This document shows, in pieces, positions 1,619-61,481 of a stretch of 64,000 bases of DNA. This DNA comes from a virus. The stretch's first letter is position 1. Every line of letters starts with the position of its first letter. Both the position numbers and the translations under genes were made by a program. Under the pieces are notes generated by a model. It had not been told where the DNA came from. It searched no databases and saw only the letters and a program-made list of their open reading frames with translations. Location of the stretch: IMG/VR virus record IMGVR_UViG_3300005002_000001; one strand, written 5' to 3'.

Positions 1619-1834
1619 ATGGCAACCAAGAAGGTCCACGTCCTCTCCGTCCAGTCCGAGTCCTGCGACCACTACGGTCCGTTCGTCTTCGCCGTCCGAC
1701 CCAACGTCGCTCAGCTGAAGACCTTCCTCAGGAAGAACACGTCCCCCGACGACGCCGACTTCTCGGCCGACGGTCCGGGCTGGCAGGGATCGTACCTGCA
1801 CCTGACCTGGTCGACCCGGACCGTGCACGAGTGA
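1619..1834 (+). CDS. hypothetical protein
   Basis: track ORF starting at predicted leaderless transcription start site. Confidence 0.55.
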   Translation: MATKKVHVLSVQSESCDHYGPFVFAVRPNVAQLKTFLRKNTSPDDADFSADGPGWQGSYLHLTWSTRTVHE

Positions 1835-1858
1835 GTGTAAAGAAGCGCTGAGCACTTC

Positions 1859-1892
1859 TGTAATCGCGAGCGAGTCCTGATAGGATTAAATC
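1859..1892 (+). promoter_or_regulatory. conserved promoter TGTAATC-N15-TAGGAT-N5-ATG
   Basis: tctgtaatcgcgagcgagtcctgataggattaaatcATG. Confidence 0.55.
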
Positions 1893-2066
1893 ATGGTCAA
1901 GCTGGTCCTCCCGCAGGAAGTCAAGATCGCCGTCCGACCCCTCAAGCTCGTCCCGTCCGAGGACGAGTACGATCGCATGTCCAAGATGGAGTGGCGCTTC
2001 GCCGTCCTGGACGCTCGGACCCAGGTGGGTCGGGCGCTCAACCAGTTCTTCTACGGAGGCAAGTGA
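1893..2066 (+). CDS. hypothetical small protein (57 aa)
   Basis: ATG 6 nt after -10 element; translated by hand MVKLVLPQEVKIAVRPLKLVPSEDEYDRMSKMEWRFAVLDARTQVGRALNQFFYGGK; stop overlaps next ATG. Confidence 0.5.
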   Translation: MVKLVLPQEVKIAVRPLKLVPSEDEYDRMSKMEWRFAVLDARTQVGRALNQFFYGGK

Positions 2067-2524
2067 TGGGCTACTGGATCGTCAAGGGCGGCGCCAAGGT
2101 CAACGGCAAGACCGTCTACCTCCAGGACCAGGGCATGCTCCGGACGGAGGACCAGCCGCGCGGCGGACCCGGGTTCTTCGGTCCCAAGAAGTCGGCCTTC
2201 CGCTTCGCCTCAGGCGAGCAGGCGACGCGAGCGACCCTGGGCATGCTCAACCTGGGACGCGGAGCTCTCCCGGTGGCCGTCGAGACGAAGAAGCCGCATC
2301 GCAGCTTCCTGGTCGATCAGGCCATCGCCGACCTGGAGCGGGACGTGGAGTACGAGTCCGACCTCCCCAAGGCGTACATGCAGCCCGACGACTGCTCCTA
2401 CCGCTGCAAGGCGGCTCTGCTCCGGTACGTCCGAGAGCTGGAAGCGGCCCTCAAGGCGGCGAGCAAGCCCAAGTCCCGGTACGAGACGGCCAACCGGCAC
2501 GAGTACGATTCCTCCAAGGCGTAG
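2066..2524 (+). CDS. hypothetical protein (N-terminal MGYWIVKGG motif)
   Basis: ATGA-coupled start inside track ORF 1991-2524. Confidence 0.5.
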   Translation: MGYWIVKGGAKVNGKTVYLQDQGMLRTEDQPRGGPGFFGPKKSAFRFASGEQATRATLGMLNLGRGALPVAVETKKPHRSFLVDQAIADLERDVEYESDLPKAYMQPDDCSYRCKAALLRYVRELEAALKAASKPKSRYETANRHEYDSSKA

Positions 2525-2558
2525 TGTAATCGTCCGCCCGGCGTGGTAAGATGGATTC
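2525..2558 (+). promoter_or_regulatory. conserved promoter TGTAATC-N16-TAAGAT-N6-ATG
   Basis: gtagtgtaatcgtccgcccggcgtggtaagatggattcATG. Confidence 0.55.
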
Positions 2559-3227
2559 ATGGTGGAGAGCAAGCAGATGCACAAGTCGGAGTTCGCGCGG
2601 ATCAGCAAGGCCGTCATCGCCCGCCTCATCGAGGCCGGACTGCCCCTGCGGCAGGACTCGCACGACGAGCTGGTCGCCCTGGTGGCCAGGCAAGACGATT
2701 ACTTCCACGACGTCCGCGCCGTGCTGAGCGTCGATCCCAAGGCGCGCTGGTCCGAGGACGCCCGGATCGACGTGACGGCCGACCGCAGCTGGGACAAGGA
2801 AGTGGACGAGGAGACGGGCGACGTCCTGGCCACGTCCAAGGTCAAGGTGACACTGCGCCTCAGCAGCTTCGAGGGCCCTCCCTCGGACGAGCTCTACGGT
2901 CGGCTGGACCTGACGCGCCAGGCCGTCGAGGCGTGCGAGAGCCTGCAGAAGGAGTTCGCCAAGGAGTACAAGTACGTCGTCCGCACGGCGGCGGAAGAGG
3001 CCGAGCGTCTGGCCAAGGAGGAGGCCGAGAACCGGCGCCTGAAGGTGCAGCGGATGGCCGAGTACCCGTCCAAGGGACTGCGCGCCGGCGGCAACGCCCG
3101 AACCGTCTCCCGCGAGCTCTTCACGGGCTGCCCGGACGGGACGTACGAGGTGAGCTACGATTCGGGCAAGCGCCAGTGCCGAGTGGTCCTCAGGCCGGGT
3201 AACGCCACCATCAGGAGGCTGGGATGA
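2559..3227 (+). CDS. hypothetical protein with C-terminal coiled coil
   Basis: track ORF; EEAERLAKEEAENRRLK heptad-like segment; alternative start at 2574 after GGAGAG. Confidence 0.55.
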   Translation: MVESKQMHKSEFARISKAVIARLIEAGLPLRQDSHDELVALVARQDDYFHDVRAVLSVDPKARWSEDARIDVTADRSWDKEVDEETGDVLATSKVKVTLRLSSFEGPPSDELYGRLDLTRQAVEACESLQKEFAKEYKYVVRTAAEEAERLAKEEAENRRLKVQRMAEYPSKGLRAGGNARTVSRELFTGCPDGTYEVSYDSGKRQCRVVLRPGNATIRRLG

Positions 3228-12846: not shown

Positions 12847-12881
12847 TGTAATCTCGGCTTCTCGGGGCTTATGATGGTCCC
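12847..12881 (+). promoter_or_regulatory. conserved promoter TGTAATC-N16-TATGAT-N5-ATG
   Basis: gttgtaatctcggcttctcggggcttatgatggtcccATG. Confidence 0.5.
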
Positions 12882-13067
12882 ATGCTAGCGGCAATTGCGT
12901 GGGCCTATGAGACTCTCGAAGCCAACGATCAGATGACGGCGGCCGAGCTCAAGGAGCAGTATCGCTGGTTCATGAAGACGTACCACCCGGACAATCCGGA
13001 GACAGGCGACGTCCAGATCTATCGCAACGCCATCGAGGCGTGGAAGATCCTCAGCAGGGAGATTTGA
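12882..13067 (+). CDS. J-domain mini-protein (DnaJ-like, HPD motif)
   Basis: ELKEQYRWFMKTYHPDNPETGD...IYRNAIEAWKIL matches the J-domain helix II-HPD loop-helix III pattern. Confidence 0.55.
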   Translation: MLAAIAWAYETLEANDQMTAAELKEQYRWFMKTYHPDNPETGDVQIYRNAIEAWKILSREI

Positions 13068-13068
13068 C

Positions 13069-13194
13069 ATGTCTCAAGAAGATGAAGATTGGGATCGCTT
13101 TCGGACCAAGTTGAGCGGCTGCTTCGACGCGTCTATCGTTGCCGTCGGGCTGGGGATCATCGTCTCCTGTTTCGTCGAGTGGTGCGGTCGATGA
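13069..13194 (+). CDS. tiny membrane protein (41 aa)
   Basis: hand translation MSQEDEDWDRFRTKLSGCFDASIVAVGLGIIVSCFVEWCGR. Confidence 0.3.
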   Translation: MSQEDEDWDRFRTKLSGCFDASIVAVGLGIIVSCFVEWCGR

Positions 13195-13364
13195 CGTCTT
13201 GCGGTTGGCAAGACAAGCGTCCCGTGACACGGAAGCACCACCAGAAATCTTTTCTGTGGGAGGGTGAAAGAGTCTGGGTCGACGAGAAGCTGATTAATCT
13301 GATCCCAAATCTGTTCAAGCTCGTGATCATCACGTCTACGGCAAGCGATGACAGCTTTATCTGA
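13191..13364 (+). CDS. hypothetical small protein
   Basis: ATGA start inside track ORF 13089-13364. Confidence 0.3.
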   Translation: MTSCGWQDKRPVTRKHHQKSFLWEGERVWVDEKLINLIPNLFKLVIITSTASDDSFI

Positions 13365-13776
13365 ATATACGACCCACAAGCTGGGCGACATCAAGCAATT
13401 GATCTCGAACTGCGTCCAGATCGCGCTAGAAGACGAGGATTCCCAGTTCTTCAAGACGTGCGAGGAGTTGCGTCGTTTGAGAAACGCGTTGGATCCGCGC
13501 GAGCTGCGGACCGACCACGTCAAGTGGCATCGCAAGGACAATTGGCGACTCGTGGGAAAGGAAATCATCGATAATCCGTACGCCTCGGCCCCTGATGAAA
13601 AACGTCTTCCGTACCAGCTCAGGTTGGAATTCGACGCCGGTCTTTACCGAGCGTGGGTGACGGTGTGCAATTTCCCGGCTCCTGAGGGAGACATTCGTGA
13701 CATCGACGTCCTCATCGGAGCCTTCTGGTCGCCCGAGCACCAGCCGCCGACGGGACCCATTCGAGTCCGCGGATGA
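13348..13776 (+). CDS. hypothetical protein
   Basis: track ORF; ATGA overlap with next gene. Confidence 0.5.
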   Translation: MTALSEYTTHKLGDIKQLISNCVQIALEDEDSQFFKTCEELRRLRNALDPRELRTDHVKWHRKDNWRLVGKEIIDNPYASAPDEKRLPYQLRLEFDAGLYRAWVTVCNFPAPEGDIRDIDVLIGAFWSPEHQPPTGPIRVRG

Positions 13777-14198
13777 AAAAGCAGCTCGAAGAACTCCTCT
13801 TGACGGAGGAGGGTGCTATCGTCCTTTTGGGCGAGGAGAAAGTCATGTCCAAAACGGGAGATTGGTCCGGGCTCGTGGGTCGCATGATTCGTGGCCGTGG
13901 CTATTCTCATTCCGAAGGTTACGAGACGATCGACCTGTATCCCAGCGTCCAATCTTACGACAAGAAGATGGACGAAAAAGCGGGGACGCACGAGTCAGGA
14001 GCATCTTGGCAAATGTGGCGTCTCTTGACGAAAGAAGAGCGCGGGCAACCCGTCCAGCTCTATAAGAAAGATATCTGGACCGTTGTGGGAGTCGAGGTCG
14101 ACAAGGAAGGCGCTCTACGTCTCGTCAAGATCGCTTCGCCCGCCGGACAGACGGGTTGGACTCCTCACTTCTATCGCCTCGAGGTCGTCGACGGATGA
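13773..14198 (+). CDS. GDL-WTV-GW family protein
   Basis: KKDIWTVVGVEVDKEGALRLVKIASPAGQTGWTPHF. Confidence 0.55.
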   Translation: MKKQLEELLLTEEGAIVLLGEEKVMSKTGDWSGLVGRMIRGRGYSHSEGYETIDLYPSVQSYDKKMDEKAGTHESGASWQMWRLLTKEERGQPVQLYKKDIWTVVGVEVDKEGALRLVKIASPAGQTGWTPHFYRLEVVDG

Positions 14199-14548
14199 TC
14201 ACTCTTTTCGAAAGCATGACGATCAAGCAGGGGGACTTGCTGCGTTTCGAACCCGACGGTCGGTGCCAGCTCTTCGACCTGTATCAGCGCCTCGAACGCG
14301 GCGTCATGCAGAGCTACACGCCGCTCGATCCCGTCCAGACGTGGGATCAGGTGTGGACCGTGCTCGACGTCGTCATCGATCGAGACAAGCTACTATGCAT
14401 CGTGCAGATGTGCAGCGCCCAGGGAGCCAAAGGCTGGGTCGTCATGGTCGCTGACGGCCAGCATCCCGCGCGCGGATCCAACCTTCTGCGTCACAACTTC
14501 GAGATCATCGAAGACTACGGCGAATTCAACTGCGATAAATGCCTTTGA
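14195..14548 (+). CDS. GDL-WTV-GW family protein
   Basis: ATGA start; QGDLLRF ... VWTVLDVVIDRDKLLCIVQMCSAQGAKGWVV. Confidence 0.55.
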   Translation: MITLFESMTIKQGDLLRFEPDGRCQLFDLYQRLERGVMQSYTPLDPVQTWDQVWTVLDVVIDRDKLLCIVQMCSAQGAKGWVVMVADGQHPARGSNLLRHNFEIIEDYGEFNCDKCL

Positions 14549-14847
14549 CTCCCCAGCAGATCCATCGGCGCATGACGGAGTTCCGAATCGGCACGCTCAT
14601 CAAGCCGAATCGAGAGATCAAACTGTGCGAACTCATCGTCCAAAAGGACGGCCGAGCCTGGCTCGATTGGGACAACACGAGGCTCATCACAGAGTTTGAA
14701 AATAAGAAGCGACTGTGGCTCATCGTCGACGCGCACGTGACGCCCGGCTTCGATCAGCACTATTACGTCAAGATCTTCGAATTCCAAAGCGGACGCGTCG
14801 GATGGACCGAATCGCTGGCCCTCTACGAACCGGTATTGTATAAATGA
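14539..14847 (+). CDS. GDL-WTV-GW family protein (divergent)
   Basis: RLWLIVDAHVTPGFDQHYYVKIFEFQSGRVGWTE. Confidence 0.5.
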   Translation: MPLTPQQIHRRMTEFRIGTLIKPNREIKLCELIVQKDGRAWLDWDNTRLITEFENKKRLWLIVDAHVTPGFDQHYYVKIFEFQSGRVGWTESLALYEPVLYK

Positions 14848-15242
14848 GACACGCTCGCCTCTACATTCTAGCTCATCCTTCGGATTGCGACCCGCCCCAC
14901 GGGCTCGATCTGACTCCCGGCAGTCGAGATTCTCTCAAGGTCGAGATGCTGGAGGAGGCCTTTCGGACGAAGGGTTTCGATCCCGACGAGCCCGCCCTCG
15001 TCGGCTATCCCATCGACGGTCGCATCCAACTCCTGAGCGGCACTCATCGTCACGAAGCAGCGCGCCGCGCCGACATGTTTCTACCCGTCACCCTCAAGCT
15101 GAGGAGTGTCGTCGAAGGTTCCTGGGGCACCGATCGGTGGGAGGCCCTCATCGAGGATATTCCCGTTAGAGATTTGGAATGGGCTCCCGTTCGGGAGAGC
15201 GATTGGATTCCCGGGCTGGACGAGAGAGTGAGCTTTCGATGA
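14844..15242 (+). CDS. possible ParB/sulfiredoxin-like nuclease domain protein
   Basis: PALVGYPIDGRIQLLSGTHRHEAARRA resembles the ParB N-terminal GxxR/H-R-x-x-A motif; weak. Confidence 0.35.
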   Translation: MRHARLYILAHPSDCDPPHGLDLTPGSRDSLKVEMLEEAFRTKGFDPDEPALVGYPIDGRIQLLSGTHRHEAARRADMFLPVTLKLRSVVEGSWGTDRWEALIEDIPVRDLEWAPVRESDWIPGLDERVSFR

Positions 15243-15856
15243 AAGGCCCGCAGGACGAATACGACATTCTCGCCCGTCAACTGGATGACCTCGTCTATTA
15301 TCGGAAGAACCTTCGTTCTGGGCCCTCCTTTAACATGTGGGAGCAGGACTTCTCCGGCAAGGTCAAGTACCGAGACTTCGAATACGAAGAGTCTCGCCTG
15401 ATGGACAAAGAGGTCGACATTCGAGTGCGAATGGAAGAGCTCCGGCGCCGACAGCGCGGGCTCAACGAGCAGCGTCTCAATCCAGCTTCGGGTTGTCGAC
15501 TCGACGAGCTCTACCCAACTCTACCCGCTCCGGGAGCGTTGCTTCGATTCGATCTGACCAATAAAAGCGAGGGTCGTTGGCGTTACAAGCCCGATAAGCA
15601 GCAGGTGGGAGAGGGTGATCCGGGTTATCGAAATCTCGCCATCGGCGTCAAATCGTTCAGAACCTCGACGGGGGAGATGTCCTGGTCGCTCGAGAGCCCG
15701 TTCGTATTGGCGCATCCCGACGCGGCAATCATTCTTCTCCCGTGCGAGCCCGTTCTGATCGGCGATCATACGCCCTTTGTCAAGATCATGGTCAATACGG
15801 TTCGTCGTGATTCCGAAATTCTTTGGTCACCGGTTTCCGACCTGGTGATCGTGTAA
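15239..15856 (+). CDS. hypothetical protein
   Basis: ATGA start inside track ORF 15179-15856. Confidence 0.5.
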   Translation: MKGPQDEYDILARQLDDLVYYRKNLRSGPSFNMWEQDFSGKVKYRDFEYEESRLMDKEVDIRVRMEELRRRQRGLNEQRLNPASGCRLDELYPTLPAPGALLRFDLTNKSEGRWRYKPDKQQVGEGDPGYRNLAIGVKSFRTSTGEMSWSLESPFVLAHPDAAIILLPCEPVLIGDHTPFVKIMVNTVRRDSEILWSPVSDLVIV

Positions 15857-31166: not shown

Positions 31167-32102
31167 ATGTATCGTAGGATCGCGCTTGCTTTAGCGGCGC
31201 TCTCTCTCATCGGATGCGGCAGCCAAGACGTTCCTCCGGCCCACAAGGGTCGTAAATTCGACAAGACGGGAGCCGCGGCTCTCTGGGCCGGCGGAGCCGG
31301 CTTCGAGGGTCCGATCCTCGGGCCCGGCACGTACTACACGGGCATCTACCCCGAGATTCGCATGGTAGAATGCGGACAGCGCACCGTCAAAGAGTCGCTG
31401 ACGGCTCTCACCAAGGACGGCGTCCAGTTCTCTCTCGATGTCTACGTCTCGTACAGCGCGGCCTGCGACGAAGAAAAGACCGTCCAGACGCTGCTCGAAA
31501 AGCTTTCTCCCGAGGGCAAGCAGCCGGTGCCCGAAAAGGGCAAGGAAGACGCGTCGCAGCACGCTAGCGCCGCCGCCGATCCGACGCTGACGATCACAGC
31601 CGATCAGGTTTATCGGGTCTTCATCCGCCCGGCGATGGGCGAGGCCGTTCGCGAAAGCGTCTCTCCTTACATCGCCAACGATGTCAACGAGAAGCGCGAA
31701 GAGATCTTCGACAAGGTCAAGAAGTCCTTCGAGGAGAACCTCAAGAAGCAGCAGCAGAAACTCGTCACCATCTACACGATGAACCTCTCCAACCTCGACT
31801 TCCCGGATGCGATGGACGCGGCCAACGCGGCCCGCGCTGTCCAAGCCATCGAAAAGGACAAGGCGATCGCCGCCCGAGCGAAGGTCGAAGCCGAGATCGA
31901 GACGGCCAAGCTCGAAGTGACGAAGCGCGAGGTCGAGGCGCAGGCCGAGGCCAAAAAGATCGACGTCATCGGCGCGGCCCTTCACCGCAATCCCGAGTAC
32001 TACATCCGCGATGTATACTTCTACGCCGCCGACAAGGGTGGGTCGGTCATGGTCCCGTCGAATCCCAACGTCATCCTCCAGATGACGCCCAAGAAGCCCT
32101 AA
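31167..32102 (+). CDS. SPFH/band-7 domain lipoprotein
   Basis: lipobox signal MYRRIALALAALSLIGCGS; SPFH-like core followed by Ala/Glu-rich coiled coil AARAKVEAEIETAKLEVTKREVEAQAEAKK. Confidence 0.5.
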   Translation: MYRRIALALAALSLIGCGSQDVPPAHKGRKFDKTGAAALWAGGAGFEGPILGPGTYYTGIYPEIRMVECGQRTVKESLTALTKDGVQFSLDVYVSYSAACDEEKTVQTLLEKLSPEGKQPVPEKGKEDASQHASAAADPTLTITADQVYRVFIRPAMGEAVRESVSPYIANDVNEKREEIFDKVKKSFEENLKKQQQKLVTIYTMNLSNLDFPDAMDAANAARAVQAIEKDKAIAARAKVEAEIETAKLEVTKREVEAQAEAKKIDVIGAALHRNPEYYIRDVYFYAADKGGSVMVPSNPNVILQMTPKKP

Positions 32103-44941: not shown

Positions 44942-44958
44942 GGCTTTAAATATCGAAG
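44942..44958 (-). promoter_or_regulatory. ATATTTAAAGCC motif immediately 5' of ATG (minus strand), overlapping upstream stop codon
   Basis: 17-mer ATATTTAAAGCCATGGC identical to the one at ~22534. Confidence 0.35.
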
Positions 44959-46124
44959 CTCATCGTTCGACCGGTACGAATTCCGTTTTGAAATCCAGGC
45001 TGGCTGCCTGACCAAGGGATCAGAATCTTTCCGGCCGTAGCAGTCGACGTACCAAACGCAGCCGAGGACGAAGTAGGAGTGACGGTATGAGTCGCCATAC
45101 CGATTCCGTAATTGAGATGATTGATCGTGCCCAGGATTCCGTTATCGATGCCCTCTGATAGCACTACCCACATCGGAAATCGCTCATATGATCCGCTGTT
45201 GACGAAGTTGTTATAGCCGATCGTGCTGTTGACCAGCACTTGAGCCACCCCGTAAAGCCTCGACCCGCTTGTCAGCGTAGGATGAGCTATAGCTCCATCA
45301 ATCGTATCGACGCTGGGGCTAGTAGCTAAGCCATTAGTAGTCGTCCATGTATTTCCCCAAGGACTGTTGCCGGCGCCGCCGTTGCTGATCATGACGTACG
45401 GACTCTCAGGATAAGGCGTGATGCCGGGCCGAGGAGCGTATGATCCGAAGTGGATCACTCGATAGTTGCCGTCGGCTAGTGAATCTGTCAATACTGTCAG
45501 ACTATCTTCGCTGGCGATAACATGATATCTCAATGGTACGATAGTAGTCGAGTTATCATTTACGATCGACATGTAATTTCGACTGCCCGAATACGTGCCA
45601 CCGTGGCTAAGTGATCTAGGGAAAAATGATCCCTTACCATCGGGCGTCAGTTTCCAAACCGGATCTCCGATAGATGCTGAAGTGAGGCTGTACGTACCGT
45701 TCCACGGGCCGTCAGCCGAACCGGTGTTCGAGCCCGAGGGATGACTAGCAAAAGAGAAACCGAGATTTCCCCTCGCAGTCGACGTATTTGTCGTCGCCCA
45801 GCCGGCCGGACGCATAGGTCCATTGGAGACGACCGACCCGGTGGCAACAAACACCATGCAGTCGAACTTGCCCATCGAAGCAGAGTGGAATCGAAAGATA
45901 GCAAAAGCTCGATGCCCGGCGCCGATCGTTCCCTGATCCCAGAACGTAAATCCTGTACCGGCGACTCCGTAATTGGCAGCGATCATTTCGATGCCAAGAT
46001 CCGAGCAGCTCGAAAGATGCTGCACGGTATTGACGAACATTTCGCCGACCGTTCGACTGTCCGTTCCCGTGGAATCGGATGTCGGGTTCATATAGCAATC
46101 TACTCGTCCTCTATATTTGGGCAT
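44946..46124 (-). CDS. virion/tail-fibre-associated protein, paralogue of 46133-47389
   Basis: shared N-terminus MPKYRGRVDC and many conserved blocks (FHSASMGKFD, HPSGSNTGSADGPWNG, TPYPESPY). Confidence 0.55.
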   Translation of the reverse strand: MPKYRGRVDCYMNPTSDSTGTDSRTVGEMFVNTVQHLSSCSDLGIEMIAANYGVAGTGFTFWDQGTIGAGHRAFAIFRFHSASMGKFDCMVFVATGSVVSNGPMRPAGWATTNTSTARGNLGFSFASHPSGSNTGSADGPWNGTYSLTSASIGDPVWKLTPDGKGSFFPRSLSHGGTYSGSRNYMSIVNDNSTTIVPLRYHVIASEDSLTVLTDSLADGNYRVIHFGSYAPRPGITPYPESPYVMISNGGAGNSPWGNTWTTTNGLATSPSVDTIDGAIAHPTLTSGSRLYGVAQVLVNSTIGYNNFVNSGSYERFPMWVVLSEGIDNGILGTINHLNYGIGMATHTVTPTSSSAAFGTSTATAGKILIPWSGSQPGFQNGIRTGRTMSFDI

Positions 46125-46132
46125 CTAAAACC

Positions 46133-47389
46133 TCAGACATCGAAATTCATGGTTCGGCCTGTTCTGTGTTGCCAATTGGTGCCCGGGGCCGAACCGGACC
46201 ACGGCACAATAATCTTGACGCTCTGAGCTCCTGCCAATCCCATAGCGGCCGAGCCTGATGCGTAACTGACGGAATTCGGATTCATCCCGTACCCCCATGC
46301 TACGTGTTTGGCCAGGCCCAGAATGCCATTGTTAGTTCCTTCGGAGATAGCTACCCACATGGGTATTTTTTCAAAAGATCCGCTATTGACGAAATTCGTG
46401 TATCCAGCGATCGAAGCCAATCCACCGATGGTAACATGCCCAAAGATCAAAGCTCCCGATAACAAGCTGGGATGCGCAACAGCACCGTCGGGAGTTCCTG
46501 TTCCTCCGGCGACGCCGGCCGTCTGACCGATGTTTGCCTGTGTATAAAAAGCACCGACAGGGTTGACAGTCGATACAGTGTTTGTAAACATGTAATACGG
46601 GCTTTCGGGATAAGGAGTCGATCCCGAGCGCGGGAAATACGGCCCGAAATGTGTCACCTTATACGAGGCATCGTTAGCGTGATCGACCAAGAATGTGAAG
46701 GAATCCTCGCTCAACAAAATGTGATAACGAGCAGGCAAAAATGTAGCTTCGGAGCTTACTTGAGAGCCGTCTTCATTAAGAGTCGCTAGATAATTGCGGC
46801 TAGCCGAGTATGTGCCGGCGATGCCGTTGGCGCGTGGAAAAAACGCGCCTTTGCTGTCAGCGGTCGTCTTCCACAACGGATTGTTAGCAGACAGTCCCGA
46901 GTTTCCGATGCCCAGGGTGGCGGACGTCAAGCTATAGCTTCCATTCCACGGACCGTCGGCTGAGCCGGTGTTCGAACCCGAGGGATGGCATGCAAAAGAC
47001 ACGCCGAAATCTCCATAGAGATAATTCGAACCGACAAATGAGGTTGTCTGCTGGGACATGACAACTCCGCCGAAAGTCTGACCGCTGCTAGCTGAGACTT
47101 GATAGAGTAACATGTCGAATTTACCCATCGAAGCTGAGTGAAATCGAGCGACTATCCAAGTTCGGGGCCCAGTAGGAGTGCCTTGATCCCAGAATTGGAA
47201 TCCCGTCCCACCGGCGCCGTAATTAGCAGCAATGATTTCGATGCCAAGTTCGGGTCCGTACTGCTGTATGTGTTGCACAGTGTTGATGAACATTTCACTG
47301 TGTGCACGAGGACCTCTCCAGTTGCCGGCATTGGGATCTACCTGCAATGGAAACGAAAAGCAATCTACTCGTCCTCTATATTTGGGCAT
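46133..47389 (-). CDS. virion/tail-fibre-associated protein, paralogue of 44946-46124
   Basis: see 44946. Confidence 0.55.
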   Translation of the reverse strand: MPKYRGRVDCFSFPLQVDPNAGNWRGPRAHSEMFINTVQHIQQYGPELGIEIIAANYGAGGTGFQFWDQGTPTGPRTWIVARFHSASMGKFDMLLYQVSASSGQTFGGVVMSQQTTSFVGSNYLYGDFGVSFACHPSGSNTGSADGPWNGSYSLTSATLGIGNSGLSANNPLWKTTADSKGAFFPRANGIAGTYSASRNYLATLNEDGSQVSSEATFLPARYHILLSEDSFTFLVDHANDASYKVTHFGPYFPRSGSTPYPESPYYMFTNTVSTVNPVGAFYTQANIGQTAGVAGGTGTPDGAVAHPSLLSGALIFGHVTIGGLASIAGYTNFVNSGSFEKIPMWVAISEGTNNGILGLAKHVAWGYGMNPNSVSYASGSAAMGLAGAQSVKIIVPWSGSAPGTNWQHRTGRTMNFDV

Positions 47390-47401
47390 GCGTTACCTTA
47401 A

Positions 47402-50386
47402 TTAGGTCGTTTCTACTTCAAGCATCGCGCTCTTGACTATAGCGGCTCTATTAGAACCGGTGGGTGTACACCAGAATCTAGCTTCGATGATGCCGGATCC
47501 TGTCACCGAGCTCAGAGCGGCGGTGATCTCTCTAGAGAAATAAGTAAATGTCGTCGATGATCCCGTGACGACGGAACCTGAGATGGGCTGCGGAATTCCG
47601 TTGATGATTCCGTTGTAATCATACAGATCGGCATACGCTACTGTCGTACCCGAGACAGGAGCCAAGATCGTTCTGAAATAGAACTTCTTAGTACCAGCAG
47701 GCAATTGCGTCTGATCGAGATATGCCATTCCTAGAGATTCATTCGACCCCGATCCCTGATCTGTCGTGGCGATACCATTCATCAGATTGAATTTGTTGGA
47801 CTGAGTGACGGGTGTGCCCGAGAATTGGACTTCGAGCCAGGCACTCTTGCAGATAGCAGCGAGATCCGATCCGGTCGGCGTGCACCATAGACGAGCTTCA
47901 AAAATTCCGGAGCCCGTGACGCTCGTCAGGACGCTCGTCAGGTCCTTAGAAAAATAAGTGAATGAGGTGGAGGAACCGGTAACGATCGAGCCCTGAATTA
48001 TCTGAGGGACCCCTGAGATGATTCCGTTGTAGTCGTAGAGCTCTAGGTAAGCGACGGTCGATCCTGTCGATGGCGCCAATATCGATTTGAAATAGTAGCT
48101 TTTGGTACCGATCGGTAGCGTCGATTGATCGAAGTACGTCATACCGATAGATTCGACGGACGACGATGGCTGGGTCGTTGTGACGGTCTCGTGAGTAATT
48201 CCGTATCTCATGATACGGTTTGAACTGCCGTTGGTCGAGATGACGACGCTGCTGTTGGGACCGTTATCGACGATGGAGATGCCCGTGCCGGCCGTCAACA
48301 CTCTTTCGTTGGGCAGAGAAGACGTAGTCCCTAGAACGACGTAGGAGGCAGAAACATCGGCTCCTCCGCCCGATCCTCCGAACGATCCGGATCCGATCGT
48401 TATGGGATCGGCGATTCGAAACACAGTGACGCGACCGGTCACCATATTTTCTCCGTCTATTGGATTCGAAACGTTCCACGTGCCGGCTGTGCCGGTGTTT
48501 CTGACATATTGCAGTCTGAAGCTGCTGCCCGATATCAGAGAAATGATGCCATCTAGGCGGGCGTTGCCTGCAGCGTCTGACGCGTTGTCATATGACGTCT
48601 GCTGGATTATCGAGCCGTCCGAACCGCTGAGCCTAAAGGCGAGATATCCGGTCGACATGGCATAGTTGAAGTCCGAATGCCAGGCGTAATATCCGTCTTT
48701 GCTAACGAACCACGTCGATGCGCTTCTAGAAATACCGTTGCGAATTCGATCTTGGAATCCCGATGCGATGTTTGTGAAATCGGTCCAGGTGGTATTGTTA
48801 CCCCAGTTCAAAGACTGAGTCGTAAAACCGTCGTATATGTCAGCTGATTGAGATGATGCTCCCGTCAGACCGATAGTGACGCTGCCGCCCGGACCGCCGT
48901 CCGTGATCGCGATGCCCGTGCCAGCCGCTAGCACTCTTTCATTAGGCAGAGATGCCGTCAACGCCATGACGACGTAAGACGCGTCTCCATCTCCCGTTCC
49001 GGAGCCGCCGCCCGAACCTGAGAACGTTCCGGAAGCCGTCGAACTGATCGTGATCTGTCCGTTGGAAGCCGAAGTGATGATGATATTCGATCCGGCGACA
49101 AGATACGACTGGCCGTTCGTCAACCTCGTTAGAGATCCCGAAAGACCGGCCGTGTGATTCGTCACGCCCGAGAATGTTGAACCCGAAATAGTGGCGACGA
49201 TTCGATCGTCGATGAAGATGTTATAAGTGCCGCCGGCACCGCCATCGGTGAATTTGATGCCATTGATGGGAGCAAAGACACGTTCTGCCGTCAGCGTACC
49301 GTCAGCTGTCAATACGAGATAGGTCGCATTGATCGGTGCATCGATAGAAGAGGATGCAGCCAGGCCTGTAATCGTCACCTGTCCGTTGGAGGCCGACGTG
49401 ACCGTGATGCCGGTACCTCCGACGATGTAGGATCGACCGTCCGTCAAGCGTGTCAACGATCCTGAGAGACCCGCGGTATGAAGCGTCGCTCCAGTGAAAG
49501 TGGATCCCGAAATAGTGGCAACGACGCTGTTATTGATGGCCCACGTGACAGGACCGTTCGCGCCGCCATCGGTGACTCGAATTCCCAGGCCACCGCTGAC
49601 GAAACGCTCGTTAGTCAGCGATGCCGTCAAAGCCATGACGACGTATGACGCGCCTGGATCGGCATTCGCGCCCGAGCCTGTTGTTTGCGTGATCGACGTT
49701 ACTCGTCCTTGAGAATCGACCGTGATTTCGCTGGGATATGTGTAAGTTCCAGGAGTTCCCGTATTAGCCAGTCCTAGATTGGCGTTGGGAGACGTCGTAT
49801 CGAGCGTCAGATGTCCCGGGGTGACGGACAACACTCGAGAGTTAGAAAGACCGATTTCAGTTCCCCAAACGACATAACGAGAATTATTCGGAGCTCCGCC
49901 GCCGGCCCCTGAGGCACCGAGAGCCAGCGAGACCCAGCCTTGTCCCGTCCAAACGAACATGATTGCGCCGAAAGCGACAACGATGTTCTGAGCCGTCTGG
50001 CCGTCGATAGTCGATCCATCGGTCGTCTGAATTCGAATGGGCGTTGCGTTGCTAGCAGTTCCTCGATAATCTTTGATGATATGGGTCTGACCAGCATTAG
50101 CGGGCGGCGTGGGCAAATTGACCGTGACTTGCACTCCCGAATCATTCAGGATGAAGTACGCGATCTTGTCGTTGGTTACTCTGACATTAGCCGCATCAGC
50201 CGGACTACTGATCTGAAGAACGAACGCGTTGATATCTAGAGCGCCTCTTAGAATGAGCGCGCCTGGACTGCCTTCAAATCCGACCTGCAGATCTTTGGGC
50301 GTGACGACAGTGACAACGTCACCCTTACCGTCACGAATGACGATCTGCGGAGTCCTCTTAGCTTCTGCTACGTTGAAACTAGGCAT
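47402..50386 (-). CDS. repeat-rich fibre protein (tail-fibre-like), 994 aa
   Basis: internal ~90-aa tandem repeats (VATISGSTF(T/S)G(A/V)T(L/N)HTAGLSGSLTRLT(D/N)G...), three ASYVV(M/L)...NERV blocks, duplicated ~130-aa C-terminal domain (…YFDQSTLPIGTKSYYF… / …YLDQTQLPAGTKKFYF…). Confidence 0.6.
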   Translation of the reverse strand: MPSFNVAEAKRTPQIVIRDGKGDVVTVVTPKDLQVGFEGSPGALILRGALDINAFVLQISSPADAANVRVTNDKIAYFILNDSGVQVTVNLPTPPANAGQTHIIKDYRGTASNATPIRIQTTDGSTIDGQTAQNIVVAFGAIMFVWTGQGWVSLALGASGAGGGAPNNSRYVVWGTEIGLSNSRVLSVTPGHLTLDTTSPNANLGLANTGTPGTYTYPSEITVDSQGRVTSITQTTGSGANADPGASYVVMALTASLTNERFVSGGLGIRVTDGGANGPVTWAINNSVVATISGSTFTGATLHTAGLSGSLTRLTDGRSYIVGGTGITVTSASNGQVTITGLAASSSIDAPINATYLVLTADGTLTAERVFAPINGIKFTDGGAGGTYNIFIDDRIVATISGSTFSGVTNHTAGLSGSLTRLTNGQSYLVAGSNIIITSASNGQITISSTASGTFSGSGGGSGTGDGDASYVVMALTASLPNERVLAAGTGIAITDGGPGGSVTIGLTGASSQSADIYDGFTTQSLNWGNNTTWTDFTNIASGFQDRIRNGISRSASTWFVSKDGYYAWHSDFNYAMSTGYLAFRLSGSDGSIIQQTSYDNASDAAGNARLDGIISLISGSSFRLQYVRNTGTAGTWNVSNPIDGENMVTGRVTVFRIADPITIGSGSFGGSGGGADVSASYVVLGTTSSLPNERVLTAGTGISIVDNGPNSSVVISTNGSSNRIMRYGITHETVTTTQPSSSVESIGMTYFDQSTLPIGTKSYYFKSILAPSTGSTVAYLELYDYNGIISGVPQIIQGSIVTGSSTSFTYFSKDLTSVLTSVTGSGIFEARLWCTPTGSDLAAICKSAWLEVQFSGTPVTQSNKFNLMNGIATTDQGSGSNESLGMAYLDQTQLPAGTKKFYFRTILAPVSGTTVAYADLYDYNGIINGIPQPISGSVVTGSSTTFTYFSREITAALSSVTGSGIIEARFWCTPTGSNRAAIVKSAMLEVETT

Positions 50387-50400
50387 TTAGTCGAAGCCCG

Positions 50401-53310
50401 TTACCGGGTAAATCTCATCGAATAAATACTCGGAACGTACAGAGGCTCTTCCCTATTGCGAACAGTTCCGTCAAAGTACGGCAAAGAAGAAGTTGCCTCG
50501 AAGCTTAGGTTTGAAGAAAAAGTGTTTTCGGGTTTGATTGTAGATCCGTTGGGTCCGATGAATTTGACATTGACGGGAGCCGCCAGAACAGTGACTCCAT
50601 TGTGAAATTTGCCGTCCGGGCGCTGTTCTAGCATATCTCTGAACTGACCGTAACGATCTCGTCGGAAGACGGCCTTTGTCTGAGTTTCAAACCCATTCAA
50701 CATTCCGTATTTCCAGCCTCGAGCTATGGCTCCTCGGCTAGTTCTGTTGCTATAGCCGTAGGGCGGAGCGCCTGCATCCGAAGTTTTTGTCCTGTAAAAC
50801 GGTCGACACGTCGACCCATAGAACCCGCCAGACTGCTCTTCGCTAAAAATGTTTCGTCGGCAATTATTCCAATCTCCAGATCCGTAGAGGATTTTGATGA
50901 TGTCTTCGTACCGCAATCCAGAAAAGTTACCATTGATCGAATCGGCATGGATTCGATAGTTCTGAGCAATTCCTAGCTCAGTGTTGCCGGGTGGATACAT
51001 CTCGATAGCGATTTTCGTATCGACTGGAGAAAGCGTACTCAATCGAGTCGATCCTCCGAAGAATCCGCTAGTGTTGTATCGAGATGTCACCTTGTCTACA
51101 AGTTTAGTACGAATCAGATTAGAGTATTTGGGTTCGAATGGGAATGAACGAGTCCAATCAGTGACCGTGAAACCGATGGTGACAAAGTCAATAAAATCTA
51201 GACTGATCAACATGTCTCCGGATCCGACCACGGCGTTGTAAGGAGCACCCGAACCTTCTTTTCGAAAGATCTCATCGAATCGAGGAATCATGCTATCATA
51301 GAATTGCTCGTTATCGCTAGTGATCTGCGAGTTTCTGAAGAACTGCACGCGTTCCCAGTACTTGACTTCTTGCTCGGACAAGAAGATAGAAGGCATCGTA
51401 TTTTGAGGATCAAAATTCGTCGCGTCGGCAAGAAGCTGTCGCGACCACTGATATTCTAGACGATTTAGAAACGGAGTCGTCGTGCCCGACATGAACTGCG
51501 CTCTGGTCGATCCCGTAAACTCTTGCTGAGACCCGATGTCCCATTCATCGACTATTACATTGTGAATCGATTCATGAACTGCGTTGGTATCGAGTCGAGA
51601 ATTGAGAGTGTCATGATATTCGACTCCCTCTCTTACCATGCTACCGTACATCGTGATCTTGACAGATCCCGTATCCATCCAGATATCATGAGCCTGATTG
51701 AGGTTCATGCTTCCGTTGAAATTGAATGGAACTGTTCCGTTGACGGCGCTCTGTGAGACGCACGCTCGATACTTCGAAACAGAAAGAACGAGCTTATCAG
51801 AAGGAAACAGGATGTACGGAGATATCGCTGTCTGCTCGTAGTTGTAGAGATAGACATCGCAGTACGAACCAATTCCCTCAGGAAAGAAACGAGCAAGGGC
51901 CGAAATGCCATCACCATCGGGAACGGAAAATTCCTTGCCAAAGACGCTACGGCCAGCGGCGACTCCTCTCATCGATCGTCCGAAAGGGTTGACAGAGATA
52001 GCAAAAGAATTTCGTAACTTGTCACCTCGATTTTGGCCGTAGAGACCGTACGATCCAGGAACGCAGAAGAATCCAAGAGAGGTGACTCCGTTAGAAATTC
52101 TAGGCTCAAGTTGAAATTTCAGAGTGCCAGTGAATGTCTGATCTGACCCGGAAGATACGACGATGGCCGGTTGACCGTATGACTTGAATCCCGAAGCGAA
52201 GCGCTCGTTATAGAGAGGGCTGATGTCCTGTCCGATGAAATTGTCGTTTTCTGGGATGATGGTGGCCGATAGGATCAGATCTCTGTTGTTTCGATTGATC
52301 TGATTGATCAGACCAAAAGTGACGGCCGGACCGCCAGTGTCAAACGGATCGCCACGGTAACCGTTGATAGCGTTTAGTCTGACAAATCTCGTGTAATCTC
52401 TGAGCCATCCAGGGCCCGCCTTGATGGGCACTTCCATGATGATCTTCTCGACCATGAACGGTTGAGAGATGTAACGATTCATCTGGATGTACTGGGAAGA
52501 TGTCGCTTCGAAATTCGAATCGATCAAAGCTGACTGCGTATTGACGAGACTCAGTAGCCTTCCCATGTTGGAAAAAGCCGTGGGAATATTGTCCTGTAGA
52601 TACGAACGAGGCAGGGTCTGGTCTTCGGTCGGAGTATTCAGAATGTGACCCAACTGCAGCACATCCTGTTTAGAACTCGATAGAATGTTCGAACCCAAAT
52701 GGTTGAAAAGTCTGGTCTCCCAGAAATTCATGTTGGCCCAGGGACGGTGCCTGATGCCTGCGGCAATCTCTTCGAATCGACCTCGTTCGTTGTTCAGATA
52801 ATAGATGCTCGCAGACGAGGGCTGCATCTGCACCGCCGTCGCGACTGGAATGTCGATAGAAATTTTGGTCTTGCTATCCAGCTTCGACAAAAATCCGAGG
52901 CCGAATTCGGATAGAGAGGATCCCGTCTTGAAAAATTCTGTCGTCTTGAGATCTTGATCGTAAAGCTTGCTTTCGACGTATGGCTTGATGGCCTCAAACT
53001 GTCGAGTCGGAGTCAGCCACTGTTCGACGTCTCGAATAGCGTTGCCTGAAACGAAGATGGACGATGTCAGATTGCCGATCAGATACTTCGATCCGGACGG
53101 GATGGATGTCGGTAGAGAGACGAATTGCGGTCCCTCGGACGCGGTGCCGACCAGCTGTGTATAGACAAATGTGTCAGTGTCATCGAAGAAGATCGAGCCA
53201 GCACCCGTGCGATTCGAATCTCCCGTGCGCGCGACGGTCGGATATCGGCTGATCTGGTTATCCAGAATCCGAACTTCGAGTCGTGGGGATCTTTTCTTCT
53301 TAGAGGGCAT
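50401..53310 (-). CDS. large virion structural protein, paralogue of 53314-56193
   Basis: conserved N-terminus (...RILDNQISRYPTVARTGDSNRTGAGSIFFDDT) and C-terminus (YSSNLSFEATSSLPYFDG(T/Q)VRNREEPL). Confidence 0.55.
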   Translation of the reverse strand: MPSKKKRSPRLEVRILDNQISRYPTVARTGDSNRTGAGSIFFDDTDTFVYTQLVGTASEGPQFVSLPTSIPSGSKYLIGNLTSSIFVSGNAIRDVEQWLTPTRQFEAIKPYVESKLYDQDLKTTEFFKTGSSLSEFGLGFLSKLDSKTKISIDIPVATAVQMQPSSASIYYLNNERGRFEEIAAGIRHRPWANMNFWETRLFNHLGSNILSSSKQDVLQLGHILNTPTEDQTLPRSYLQDNIPTAFSNMGRLLSLVNTQSALIDSNFEATSSQYIQMNRYISQPFMVEKIIMEVPIKAGPGWLRDYTRFVRLNAINGYRGDPFDTGGPAVTFGLINQINRNNRDLILSATIIPENDNFIGQDISPLYNERFASGFKSYGQPAIVVSSGSDQTFTGTLKFQLEPRISNGVTSLGFFCVPGSYGLYGQNRGDKLRNSFAISVNPFGRSMRGVAAGRSVFGKEFSVPDGDGISALARFFPEGIGSYCDVYLYNYEQTAISPYILFPSDKLVLSVSKYRACVSQSAVNGTVPFNFNGSMNLNQAHDIWMDTGSVKITMYGSMVREGVEYHDTLNSRLDTNAVHESIHNVIVDEWDIGSQQEFTGSTRAQFMSGTTTPFLNRLEYQWSRQLLADATNFDPQNTMPSIFLSEQEVKYWERVQFFRNSQITSDNEQFYDSMIPRFDEIFRKEGSGAPYNAVVGSGDMLISLDFIDFVTIGFTVTDWTRSFPFEPKYSNLIRTKLVDKVTSRYNTSGFFGGSTRLSTLSPVDTKIAIEMYPPGNTELGIAQNYRIHADSINGNFSGLRYEDIIKILYGSGDWNNCRRNIFSEEQSGGFYGSTCRPFYRTKTSDAGAPPYGYSNRTSRGAIARGWKYGMLNGFETQTKAVFRRDRYGQFRDMLEQRPDGKFHNGVTVLAAPVNVKFIGPNGSTIKPENTFSSNLSFEATSSLPYFDGTVRNREEPLYVPSIYSMRFTR

Positions 53311-53313
53311 CTG

Positions 53314-56193
53314 TCATCCCATGTACTGGAATTGCTGAATATTCGTGAAGCTGAGAGGTTCTTCTCTATTTCTAACCTGTCCGTCGAAAAACGGCAAGGA
53401 AGATGTGGCTTCGAAGCTCAAATTGGAAGAGTACGTCTCTTCGGGACGGACTCGACTACCTGATGAATTGAGGAATTTTACGTTGACGACGGCCGAGCCG
53501 GCGAATGATAGATTCTTTTTTGTCGACAGGAGTCGACGACCGATTCTCTCTGCTTCATCGACCGTTTGAAAGAATTTCGTATCTTGTCGCTGCTCGAGCA
53601 TGTCTCGATACTGCCCGTATTTATCTCTTCGGTAGATTCCTTTGGAGTACTGGGGCAGTGCGTTGACGAGTCCGTATTTCCATCCTCTGATCTCGGCGCC
53701 TGCGTAGCTGTTCGTGAAAACATTTTCGATCATCAAGGGCCGATCGGTCGCGCCGAACGTCTTGGATCCCGCTCGATAGCAATTATTAAATTGACCGATG
53801 CCATAAAGAAGCTTCAGGGCTACTTCGTTTCGAAGTCCGACTCTCTGAGCTCCTGGATCGACCTGGTCGATACCGATGTTGTGAATGTTGTTTCCAACTC
53901 CTACTTTGATGACCATGTTGTCATTCATGTCGAAATAACGACCGTAGTAGGAAAAGAAGGAAAAGAAGTTCAATAGAAAGCGAGCAAAAAACTTCTGTGT
54001 CGTAGCTCGTAGGACAGTGCCGTATCTAGGTTCGAACGGGAAGGATCGGCTCCAATCGTTAGAAGAGTGATCTAGATAGATGCTCGAATACTGATTTGAG
54101 TCGAGGTTGACAGTGATGACGTTTCGAGGACCGGTACCGAACAAAAGCCAGGCGTAAAGACGTGTGAAATATCGACCCCTTCGTAAGATTTCGTCGAGCG
54201 GCGGAACGAGACTGTCATAGAATCTTTCTGTAACGGAATTAGCTTCAGCATATCTCCTGAATGACACGAGATGATAGATAAAGCGTCGGCGATCGCTGAC
54301 TCGATCGGCAAACGTCAGACGAGCATTAGCATTGCTATCCAGAGATGACCTCCAACGCGCTCGGCCCGCATTGTTATTGGCAAAGATGCTACCAGAGACG
54401 TAATCGGTGATGTATGTATCGCGAAGCTCGTCTTTGTAGAAGACGTCATATTCATCGTAAATCGGATCGCCTCCGATGATTTCGTGAACAGCAGCCGATG
54501 TACCGTTCGGATTGTGACCGTCGTTGCTTTCGATGCCCTCACGAAGAAGAGAACCGAAGAGTGTGATGTTGATCTTTCCCTCGAGGACCACGAAATCGTG
54601 AGATCCGGTCGGAGCTCCGAGCGAAGTATACGTGCCGTTGACGGAAATCATCGGACGATGCTTAGAAAGAGTCAACATCAAGCTATCTTTGGGATAGATG
54701 ATGTACGGGCTCGGCACATTAGAATCGAAGGACCAGATTTCGGGATAATCTCCAGCGATGCCGGTGCCGGGCGTACCAAAAAGCTTTTTGTTGTTGGATT
54801 CGATGTTGAATGTCGAAATTTGTGGCGTCGTAAATTCCTTGCCGAAGATCGATCGTCCGCAAGGATCGATCGTCGAACCTCGTCCGTAAGGATCGACAGA
54901 TCCGATGTAGCTCTCTTTGAATTCGGTCGCTGTCCACTGACGGCCGGCGGCCGGCGGAGCGCCGTAGCTGATTAGGCTATTTCTGACGTTAGCCGTGCCG
55001 GGAACGACGATGGTTCCCGTAAACTTTCCATCCGCATTGGGCTCGATCGCGGTCGAGGCTCTTCCAAAACTTCGGAAGCCGTACATAGCTCTGTATGTGT
55101 TGCCTCCCGAAATGAAATTCATCGTACCCGAGATGTCGTCGCCGGCTGGGATGACAGTGGCAGACATGATCAGATCTCGCTTGCCGCTATTGTTTGTACC
55201 GAGCAAAGCAAACGTGACACATGGACCGCCTGCATCAGGCACATTATCAAACGGACCGTTGGGCATCATTTGAGTGCGATCGTTGAACCAACCGGTACCC
55301 GCCCTCAGAGGAAATTCGATGACAGCCTTTTCGATGACAAATGGATGGTTGATGTAACGATCCATTCGAATCAGATTATTGGGAGTCGGGGCGTAACGTG
55401 GATCTGTCAAAACAGAAGCGGTATTGTTTTGCCACTGAAATGCGTCGTTTAAAGACGTTTTGACTTTCGATACGTCTTTGACTCCGTAGAAAGGGACGTT
55501 GGCAGCGCCGGACAGCAAAAAGTTGCCAAACGGTCCGAACATCTTAGCGTCCATGTTGGGATATGTCGTCGCCAGGCTGGCGTTATCGGTCGCCGGTCCT
55601 TCGGCGGTCGTAGCTACTCCTTGAAGGATTCCGTTGTCTCCGTCGACAACATTGCTACGCCAATAGTAAACGCTAGCTCGATTGCCAGGAATCGTCTGGG
55701 GTCCGACGTTGTTTAGCCTGATTCGAACAGCAATTTTGGATTTGAGCTTAGATTGCAGACCAAAACCGACATGCTCAACAGCTGTGCCCGTCAAGAAAAA
55801 ATCCGAATTGTCTTCGATCTGTTCGTGCAGACCGTCTTCTCTAAAGGGTCCCGGAGCTTCAGAAAAGATGGGAAGATTGTTGATCGTCCCGACCGAGCTT
55901 TTGACAGTCTTGCCAAAAGTAACGATAGAGCTTGTGAAGTCAGTGGCTTGATGCAGCTTAGATCCGACTGTCAGCGTCGAGGGCCAGGAGATGCTAGAAG
56001 ACGCCTGCGAACCGCTCGAACCCGACGGGACGTAATACGATGGATCGTAGAGGACAGTCGTCGTATCGTCGAAGAAGATCGATTGATTGCCCTTCCTCGT
56101 CGGGTCTCCCGTTCTCAGGATGCTCGGATATGTTCCGGGACGATCGTCCTGGCGGCGTATCTCGATTCTGGGTAATTGCTTCCTTTGAGACAT
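53314..56193 (-). CDS. large virion structural protein, paralogue of 50401-53310
   Basis: see 50401. Confidence 0.55.
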   Translation of the reverse strand: MSQRKQLPRIEIRRQDDRPGTYPSILRTGDPTRKGNQSIFFDDTTTVLYDPSYYVPSGSSGSQASSSISWPSTLTVGSKLHQATDFTSSIVTFGKTVKSSVGTINNLPIFSEAPGPFREDGLHEQIEDNSDFFLTGTAVEHVGFGLQSKLKSKIAVRIRLNNVGPQTIPGNRASVYYWRSNVVDGDNGILQGVATTAEGPATDNASLATTYPNMDAKMFGPFGNFLLSGAANVPFYGVKDVSKVKTSLNDAFQWQNNTASVLTDPRYAPTPNNLIRMDRYINHPFVIEKAVIEFPLRAGTGWFNDRTQMMPNGPFDNVPDAGGPCVTFALLGTNNSGKRDLIMSATVIPAGDDISGTMNFISGGNTYRAMYGFRSFGRASTAIEPNADGKFTGTIVVPGTANVRNSLISYGAPPAAGRQWTATEFKESYIGSVDPYGRGSTIDPCGRSIFGKEFTTPQISTFNIESNNKKLFGTPGTGIAGDYPEIWSFDSNVPSPYIIYPKDSLMLTLSKHRPMISVNGTYTSLGAPTGSHDFVVLEGKINITLFGSLLREGIESNDGHNPNGTSAAVHEIIGGDPIYDEYDVFYKDELRDTYITDYVSGSIFANNNAGRARWRSSLDSNANARLTFADRVSDRRRFIYHLVSFRRYAEANSVTERFYDSLVPPLDEILRRGRYFTRLYAWLLFGTGPRNVITVNLDSNQYSSIYLDHSSNDWSRSFPFEPRYGTVLRATTQKFFARFLLNFFSFFSYYGRYFDMNDNMVIKVGVGNNIHNIGIDQVDPGAQRVGLRNEVALKLLYGIGQFNNCYRAGSKTFGATDRPLMIENVFTNSYAGAEIRGWKYGLVNALPQYSKGIYRRDKYGQYRDMLEQRQDTKFFQTVDEAERIGRRLLSTKKNLSFAGSAVVNVKFLNSSGSRVRPEETYSSNLSFEATSSLPFFDGQVRNREEPLSFTNIQQFQYMG

Positions 56194-56238
56194 CTCTGAC
56201 GGATATAATCTACACTAAGTACGCCATCATGAAAGCTC

Positions 56239-57977: not shown

Positions 57978-57980
57978 CGA

Positions 57981-61460: not shown

Positions 61461-61481
61461 TGCTAGTCCTTAAAATACAAC

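Follow-up and report, generated by a model that had tools for sequence, protein, structure and literature searches.

A 61-residue, three-helix J-domain protein of uncultivated large phages and its possible action on host DnaK

J-domains are the switches that set where and when Hsp70 works. A typical J-domain is built of four helices and roughly 70 residues, with helices II and III as an antiparallel hairpin braced by helix I and a helix II surface that is positively charged. It binds to ATP-bound Hsp70 and, by means of its HPD tripeptide, sets off hydrolysis, the one biochemical job known for it. To our knowledge, the only phage J-protein to have been studied experimentally is Rki. Rki (gp057w) of enterobacteriophage RB43 is a class C J-domain protein (JDP) of 237 amino acids (aa) with an HPD, is expressed early and acts on the host DnaK (PMC3486835). 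In the summary that PMC13254874 gives of Barriot et al. 2020, JDP genes are counted in 137 phage genomes, with 49 unique sequences of which 48 are class C without any other domain. More generally, "JD-only" proteins make up about one third of all JDPs (Malinverni et al. 2023, PMC10410713). Phage proteins consisting of a J-domain only are thus an already recognised category, and the small protein described here, which we call mini-J, adds to a known kind; our data overturn nothing in current understanding. What is new is an undescribed subfamily found in metagenomes only, of minimal size, without helix IV and with an altered helix II.

The mini-J gene occupies 12882..13067 on the plus strand of the window, that is, of the whole 64 kb stretch of viral DNA analysed here, and runs from ATG to TGA as an open reading frame (ORF) whose assignment rests on a Pfam DnaJ match, dN/dS and AlphaFold2 (AF2) modelling. 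Its 61-aa product, MLAAIAWAYETLEANDQMTAAELKEQYRWFMKTYHPDNPETGDVQIYRNAIEAWKILSREI, carries YHPDNP as residues 34-39. The Pfam DnaJ profile (PF00226) matches it with E = 5.5e-8, the score of 33.3 bits exceeding the gathering cutoff of 27.8, and mini-J residues 9-60 cover positions 3-56 of the 63 in the profile. A profile made from four sequences (the closest homologues) matched in the PDB solely the J-domains of DnaJ, Sis1, Hsp40 and CbpA, and a profile of 31 family members matched 53 distinct PDB sequences at E <= 1e-3, every one of the 53 from a J-domain protein, including 5NRO chain B, the DnaJ J-domain crystallised with DnaK. The original prediction, that the 61-aa product has a J-domain core with the HPD, for which a Pfam DnaJ search had been proposed as the check, is borne out by these matches. 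NCBIfam models of DnaJ, DjlA and TopJ match mini-J via their J regions alone and far under their whole-protein cutoffs: TIGR02349 (class A/B DnaJ) gives 22.6 bits for its J region alone against a cutoff of 377, and NF006948 (DjlA) 21.5 bits against 162. As judged with TIGR02349 and related NCBIfam models, the G/F region, zinc finger and C-terminal client-binding domains are absent from the 61 aa, and since the J-domain match spans the entire protein there is no space for a client-binding region. The same prediction had held that such a region is lacking, and this too stands, the match filling a protein that ends where helix IV of DnaJ would begin.

Three close homologues of 61-63 aa share 92, 81 and 69% identity with mini-J. 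Differences between it and its close relatives are concentrated at third codon positions, as in the comparison of the window with the related locus L003 (2, 3 and 17 substitutions at codon positions 1, 2 and 3), and the Nei-Gojobori dN/dS of the frame against close relatives is 0.05-0.16. On the minus strand, an ORF of equal length mirrors the gene (12885..13070) with a dN/dS of 1.3-4.7, and because these values exceed 1 the antisense ORF was rejected as the gene. Mini-J is a real gene under strong purifying selection. No clear Shine-Dalgarno sequence was seen upstream of its ATG.

AF2 modelled mini-J with a pLDDT of 83.5 from a four-sequence alignment, and with a pLDDT of 95.7 and a pTM of 0.80 from 31 family sequences. 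[quoted passage not shown] Helix III (13011..13061, plus strand), placed by AF2, carries Y47, A53 and L57, and the protein ends here, with about one to three residues left after the helix. In Foldseek searches the top viral matches of the model were all J-domain proteins, with probabilities of 0.98-1.0; fold searches of the PDB are not discriminating for a helical protein of 61 residues.

Comparison by BLASTP with residues 1-76 of Escherichia coli DnaJ gave E = 3e-5 and paired Y9 with DnaJ Y7, L12 with L10, Y27 with Y25, R28 with K26, W29 with R27, H35-P36-D37 with H33-P34-D35, Y47 with F47, A53 with A53 and L57 with L57. In DnaJ, Y7 and L10 belong to the core and Y25 and K26 to the Hsp70-binding face, F47 is replaceable by Leu, and L57 joins helices II and III (PMC1906734; PMC13012618). 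Going by this alignment, the residues critical for E. coli DnaJ function are kept in mini-J. The alignment ends at S58 (DnaJ T58) and the stop codon follows three residues on, where DnaJ helix IV (61-68) would start, so that the fourth helix is absent. [quoted passage not shown] Of the basic residues of helix II, mini-J keeps K24, R28 and K32, with E25 standing for DnaJ K23 and W29 for R27; the equivalent of DnaJ R19 is A21, and DnaJ R36, the basic residue after the HPD, is missing. DnaJ K23 and R19 are contacts that co-evolve with DnaK (PMC5519331). Given E25, A21, W29, the loss of R36 and the low charge of helix II, the affinity of mini-J for DnaK or its partner specificity may differ from the canonical. 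Nothing is appended to this three-helix J-domain, which is folded and under selection.

In an exhaustive HMMER search of 1.84 billion cluster representatives, 165 proteins passed E <= 1e-3, and many of these are just 59-68 aa long. When the short ones were aligned and the alignment was used to search 5.8 billion proteins, it gave 30 clusters, all of 58-69 aa and scoring 79-103 bits, after which scores fall to 44 bits. The family consensus, ..AY.iLE......eLK(E)(Q/N)(F/Y)RW(L/F)VK(F)YHPDN..TG(D/N)..E(F/L)(R/K)K(I/V)I.A(Y/F).., ends soon after helix III. A Trp six residues before the HPD His, at the position of DnaJ R27, is found in 32/35 matches of <= 70 aa but in only 2/134 longer J-protein matches, where Lys and Arg dominate, and the mean net charge of helix II is +0.8 in the mini-J family versus +2.5 in longer J proteins found with the same profile. 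This is a previously undescribed subfamily of three helices, without helix IV, with a near-invariant Trp and a less basic helix II.

On long contigs, members of the subfamily sit within dense same-strand arrays of small ORFan genes. Examples are a 440 kb contig that also carries genes for EF-Ts, adenylosuccinate synthetase and a GIY-YIG protein, a 58 kb contig whose mini-J has a second record, on a contig as long as 114 kb, and a 57.8 kb contig with an RNA ligase and a PolX-like gene; the closest relative of the window protein lies on a contig of 240,834 bp. Megablast of 12 kb around mini-J against phages gave no match, and tblastn of 50,697 deposited phage records found weak matches only and no family member, the best two inspected being DnaJ-like proteins with several domains and lengths of 236 and 280 aa. 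We also used a degenerate DNA pattern encoding (F/Y)xW(L/F)xKxYHPDN, which recovers the window gene and eight control loci; it had zero matches in IMG/VR and zero in 185,579 species-representative GTDB genomes. JGI/ENA metagenomes yielded nine matches, seven of which are mini-J genes, while L017 was rejected as a chance match and L020 encodes a 290-aa protein carrying a J-domain with the same Trp (W-type). A related-locus search with a tighter family alignment returned unconfirmed pattern matches only. The subfamily is found on metagenomic, phage-like contigs only (up to 440 kb), and is carried by uncultivated large phages only. In the L020 protein (1794..2666, reverse strand of the locus), a linker of Gly/Asn-rich repeats joins a membrane region at the N-terminus to a W-type J-domain at the C-terminus that ends after helix III, a DjlA-like layout with the same J subtype.

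In the 39-nt gap 5' of the mini-J gene lies a promoter-like sequence, TGTAAT-N17-TATGAT (12847..12875, plus strand), whose hexamers are invariant in five relatives and whose spacer varies freely; its -10-like box ends 6 nt before the mini-J ATG. The exact motif occurs once in the 64 kb window, with 0.01 expected, and a relaxed form, TGTAA(T/A)-N15-19-TA(T/G/A)(G/A)AT-N5-7-ATG, ten times versus 0.02 expected. All ten copies are on the plus strand (starts at 950, 1585, 1859, 2525, 12847, 18864, 22560, 23228, 26524 and 42739), each directly before an ORF of 55-417 codons. With the -10-like box ending just 5-7 nt short of the ATG, the transcription start would fall on the start codon or next to it, and we infer from this spacing that mRNAs made from the motif are leaderless, which fits the missing Shine-Dalgarno sequence. 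Mini-J would then probably be made from a promoter-proximal, leaderless position. The recurrence of the motif implies widespread leaderless mRNAs in the window phage and may be a clue to its host.

Adjoining the J stop codon (TGAcATG) is a 41-aa ORF (13069..13194, plus strand), a candidate membrane anchor or partner. In all close relatives an ORF of 39-41 aa follows immediately on the J stop codon, and the 41-aa ORF is conserved in L001, L002, L003, L004, L005, L010, L016 and L019. Its product has a charged N-terminus, (S/E)(Q/R)EDW(D/E)RF(Q/R)TKLSG, followed by one hydrophobic helix with a Kyte-Doolittle value of 2.2 over 19 residues; in L003 the N-terminal peptide is kept and the helix has diverged. 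Relative to J it is read in frame +1 in the window, L001 and L003 but in frame +2 in L010, so a frameshift fusion was rejected and the two are taken to be separate polypeptides whose translation is coupled. In more distant family members the genes 3' of J are unrelated, and a membrane-peptide partner across the whole family is unsupported, this arrangement belonging to the close clade only. Within the window clade the peptide may add localisation to mini-J.

Seven tightly packed genes without a family match, g3-g9 (13191..15856, plus strand), follow the 41-aa ORF, recognised as ORFs and by synteny with L019, L001 and L003 and giving no match in Pfam, NCBIfam or PADLOC. The last large gene of the unit (15937..18585, plus strand) is vault-like (MVP shoulder / SPFH), its 882-aa product matching PF11978 (MVP_shoulder) at 7.9e-30, Vault_3 at 4e-8 and Band_7 at 2.6e-6, and is syntenic in L019, L001 and L003. 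This protein is 78-99% conserved in L001, L003 and L019 and resembles a relative of the major vault protein in a phage-like genome. A very stable GC-rich stem-loop with a UUCG loop just 3' of the vault-like gene (18598..18648, plus strand; -34.9 kcal/mol, z = -4.9), which has a counterpart in L001 (-32.8 kcal/mol, z = -4.3), is the likely 3' boundary of the mini-J unit; it has no U-tract and may be a terminator or an RNA-stabilising element. The next promoter copy, TGTAAT-N16-TAGGAT-N5-ATG (18864..18899, plus strand), starts the following unit, with equivalent copies 3' of the vault-like gene in L001 and L019, and no promoter motif was seen inside the mini-J-to-vault unit. The order promoter, J, 41-aa ORF, g3-g9, vault-like gene, promoter is also that of L019, a near twin of the window, and of L001, and partly that of L003. 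These motifs and gene orders mark out, in at least three genomes, a single unit between promoters that opens with mini-J and has the vault-like gene as its last large gene, and this common unit lends a link between mini-J and the vault protein one real, if indirect, support.

Three further features of this region were observed. The gene g8 (14844..15242, plus strand, 132 aa) is by far the most conserved in the unit, with 90% identity in L001 against 41-58% for its neighbours, and has a weak ParB/Srx-like match (phrog_1033, E = 0.21). A 57-aa ORF (13191..13364, plus strand) has the N-terminus CPVTRKHxQKSFLWEG in common with a 200-aa gene of L003 (757..1359), and for this reason seems to have been truncated in the lineage of the window. 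L001 (9708..9962) and L003 (158..409) have, between the 246-aa gene and the J gene, a Cys-rich gene of 83-84 aa (CSSCHRP...CTTHYCKRFGR) that the window and L019 lack.

Established J-domain knowledge and the precedent of Rki (PMC3486835) make host DnaK/Hsp70 the expected target of mini-J, and the missing Hsp70 in the 64 kb window counts for host DnaK as well. With the J-domain elements kept and nothing else present, the reading we favour, at a probability of roughly 0.42, is that mini-J triggers or deregulates host DnaK without bringing a client, possibly while tethered to the membrane via the downstream peptide. Mini-J would dock on the ATPase domain and linker of host DnaK through helix II and the HPD, and once docked would trigger ATP hydrolysis. 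Lacking any part that binds clients, it would be unable to deliver substrates, and would instead fire or occupy DnaK untargeted, drawing it off DnaJ-directed tasks. The most plausible pay-off, as for Rki, would be that DnaK/DnaJ control over the heat-shock sigma factor is lost, the chaperone pool being re-tuned for the phage.

There are two precedents for this deregulator reading: free, unregulated J-domains hyperactivate and deplete Hsp70 (PMC10624832), and RB43 Rki binds DnaK and stabilises sigma32 and is no generic co-chaperone (PMC3486835). The low charge of helix II (+0.8 vs +2.5) counts against it. So does a result ascribed to Karzai and McMacken in 1996, according to which the J-domain of DnaJ alone reportedly stimulates the DnaK ATPase poorly without substrate. 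Rki itself supplies a further objection, since truncation at residue 159 abolished all of its toxicity (PMC3486835), from which it follows that the Rki J-domain needed its C-terminal domain.

The main rival, which we consider possible but doubtful, is a two-piece co-chaperone in which mini-J forms the catalytic half and the co-translated 41-aa peptide is an inner-membrane anchor, an arrangement that DjlA and Pam18 have within a single polypeptide. The pair would recruit DnaK to a specific site or to products of the same unit, and possibly to the assembly of the vault-like/SPFH protein. The adjoining 39-41 aa ORF in every close relative speaks for such a pair, as do the N-terminal peptide EDWxRFxTKLSG, kept even where the helix diverged (L003), the fusion of a W-type, helix-IV-less J-domain to an N-terminal membrane region in the 290-aa protein of L020, and the fact that in the window, L019 and L001 the J and vault-like genes belong to a single unit bounded by promoters; the literature offers a lead in DNAJC19, which binds SPFH-family prohibitin rings (PMC12953747). 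The distant members L006, L007, L009, L013 and L021, however, have unrelated non-membrane genes downstream and no vault-like gene within 8 kb, and tight gene packing is normal in phages. It is the lack of the peptide partner outside the window clade that weakens the two-piece arrangement. A more specific proposal, that mini-J and the 41-aa peptide form a membrane-tethered Hsp70 recruiter dedicated to building the vault-like/SPFH shell of the same leaderless unit, strikes us as very unlikely; if true, a jumbo phage would bring along a device of its own that directs chaperones to the assembly of an organelle-like compartment.

We regard it as unlikely that mini-J is a blocker or decoy, which would occupy the J-binding site of DnaK or mimic the DnaJ J-domain and so shut off DnaJ-dependent host processes, including immune sensing. 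A DnaJ-dependent antiphage sensor does exist (bNACHT25, PMC12169576), Rki is more toxic when DnaJ is absent, suggesting that the two compete for DnaK (PMC3486835), and mini-J, with no client-binding part, is encoded in a block of small ORFans of the kind that often holds host-takeover functions. Yet the HPD and the residues of the activating signal, which a pure blocker would not need, are strictly conserved, and the less basic helix II argues against unusually tight binding. PADLOC, run on mini-J and nine neighbours, gave no match, which also tells against a blocker, and a defence or anti-defence assignment was rejected on this result.

That mini-J acts with a phage-encoded Hsp70, to which its Trp and low-charge helix II would be matched, appears highly improbable. 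Some large phages do encode DnaK and DnaJ homologues (PMC12619734), the helix II signature is unlike that of canonical DnaK partners, and the window shows 64 kb of a genome of ~240 kb. Against this, none of the six window ORFs >= 500 aa, the size class of Hsp70, has an Hsp70 Pfam match, no Hsp70 PROSITE signature occurs in the six frames of the window, and the annotation of L001, L006, L007 and L009 shows no Hsp70 over the 16-20 kb surrounding the gene; a phage-encoded Hsp70 was rejected for the 64 kb window. Finally, the notion that mini-J is a non-functional chance ORF or the leftover of a longer J-protein, to which its very short length, the lack of a clear Shine-Dalgarno sequence and the equal-length mirror ORF might lend themselves, is already refuted by the selection and conservation data, with dN/dS of 0.05-0.16 in frame and > 1 in the mirror frame, length (58-69 aa) and stop position kept in ~30 clusters, a conserved promoter and a fold predicted with high confidence.

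Many PHROGs are matched in the window, which also carries accessory genes typical of large phages, including Rnl1-like RNA ligase, AlkB-like, NTP-transferase, Band_7 and ADP-ribosylglycohydrolase genes; no capsid or terminase gene was identified within its 64 kb. A second SPFH/Band_7 gene lies at 31167..32102 (plus strand), and in L007/L008, on an unrelated contig, a Band_7 gene lies ~8 kb downstream of mini-J; J and SPFH genes may co-occur recurrently. A block of very large minus-strand ORFs (44946..63604; 392-1159 aa, four of them > 950 aa) has hardly any family matches, with Laminin_G_3 in one ORF and a weak CBM_X2 in another, and presumably encodes structural or fibre proteins. GC content drops strongly across the window, from 0.62-0.65 over the initial 4 kb down to 0.44 at the opposite end.

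A phage family cut down to helices I-III raises the question of what a client-less J-domain does. With 58-69 residues, mini-J proteins are a natural minimal tool with which to probe or perturb DnaK, and their altered helix II could reveal how J-domain/Hsp70 specificity is tuned. From the conserved association with genes for a membrane peptide and a vault-like protein comes a hypothesis that is concrete and testable.

Among the described systems, DjlA of E. coli is like mini-J in pairing a membrane anchor with a J-domain, which in DjlA is at the extreme C-terminus; the one-polypeptide layout of DjlA recurs in L020, whereas the candidate anchor of mini-J is a separate downstream ORF whose association with it is putative. 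Mitochondrial Pam18/Tim14 (DNAJC19, DNAJC15) resembles mini-J in that its J-domain is compact, has three helices and works at a membrane. The three-helix fold of Tim14 is said to have been described by Mokranjac and colleagues in 2006. For Pam16/Magmas such a fold is cited in PMC2838536, and DNAJC19 associates with SPFH-family prohibitins (PMC12953747). [quoted passage not shown]

Rki shares with mini-J that it is a phage-encoded J-domain protein with an HPD. No specific similarity was detected between the two, RB43-type phages not being among the tblastn matches, and they differ in genome type and in the C-terminal domain of ~160 aa that Rki requires for its DnaK-dependent toxicity and that has no counterpart in mini-J. 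The J-domain-only phage JDPs of Barriot et al. and Malinverni et al. are alike in consisting of a J-domain alone, with a function that is mostly not known. From these the mini-J subfamily is set apart by its absence from deposited phage genomes and IMG/VR, and by its minimal size (58-69 aa), its three-helix form without helix IV and a Trp in place of a basic helix II residue.
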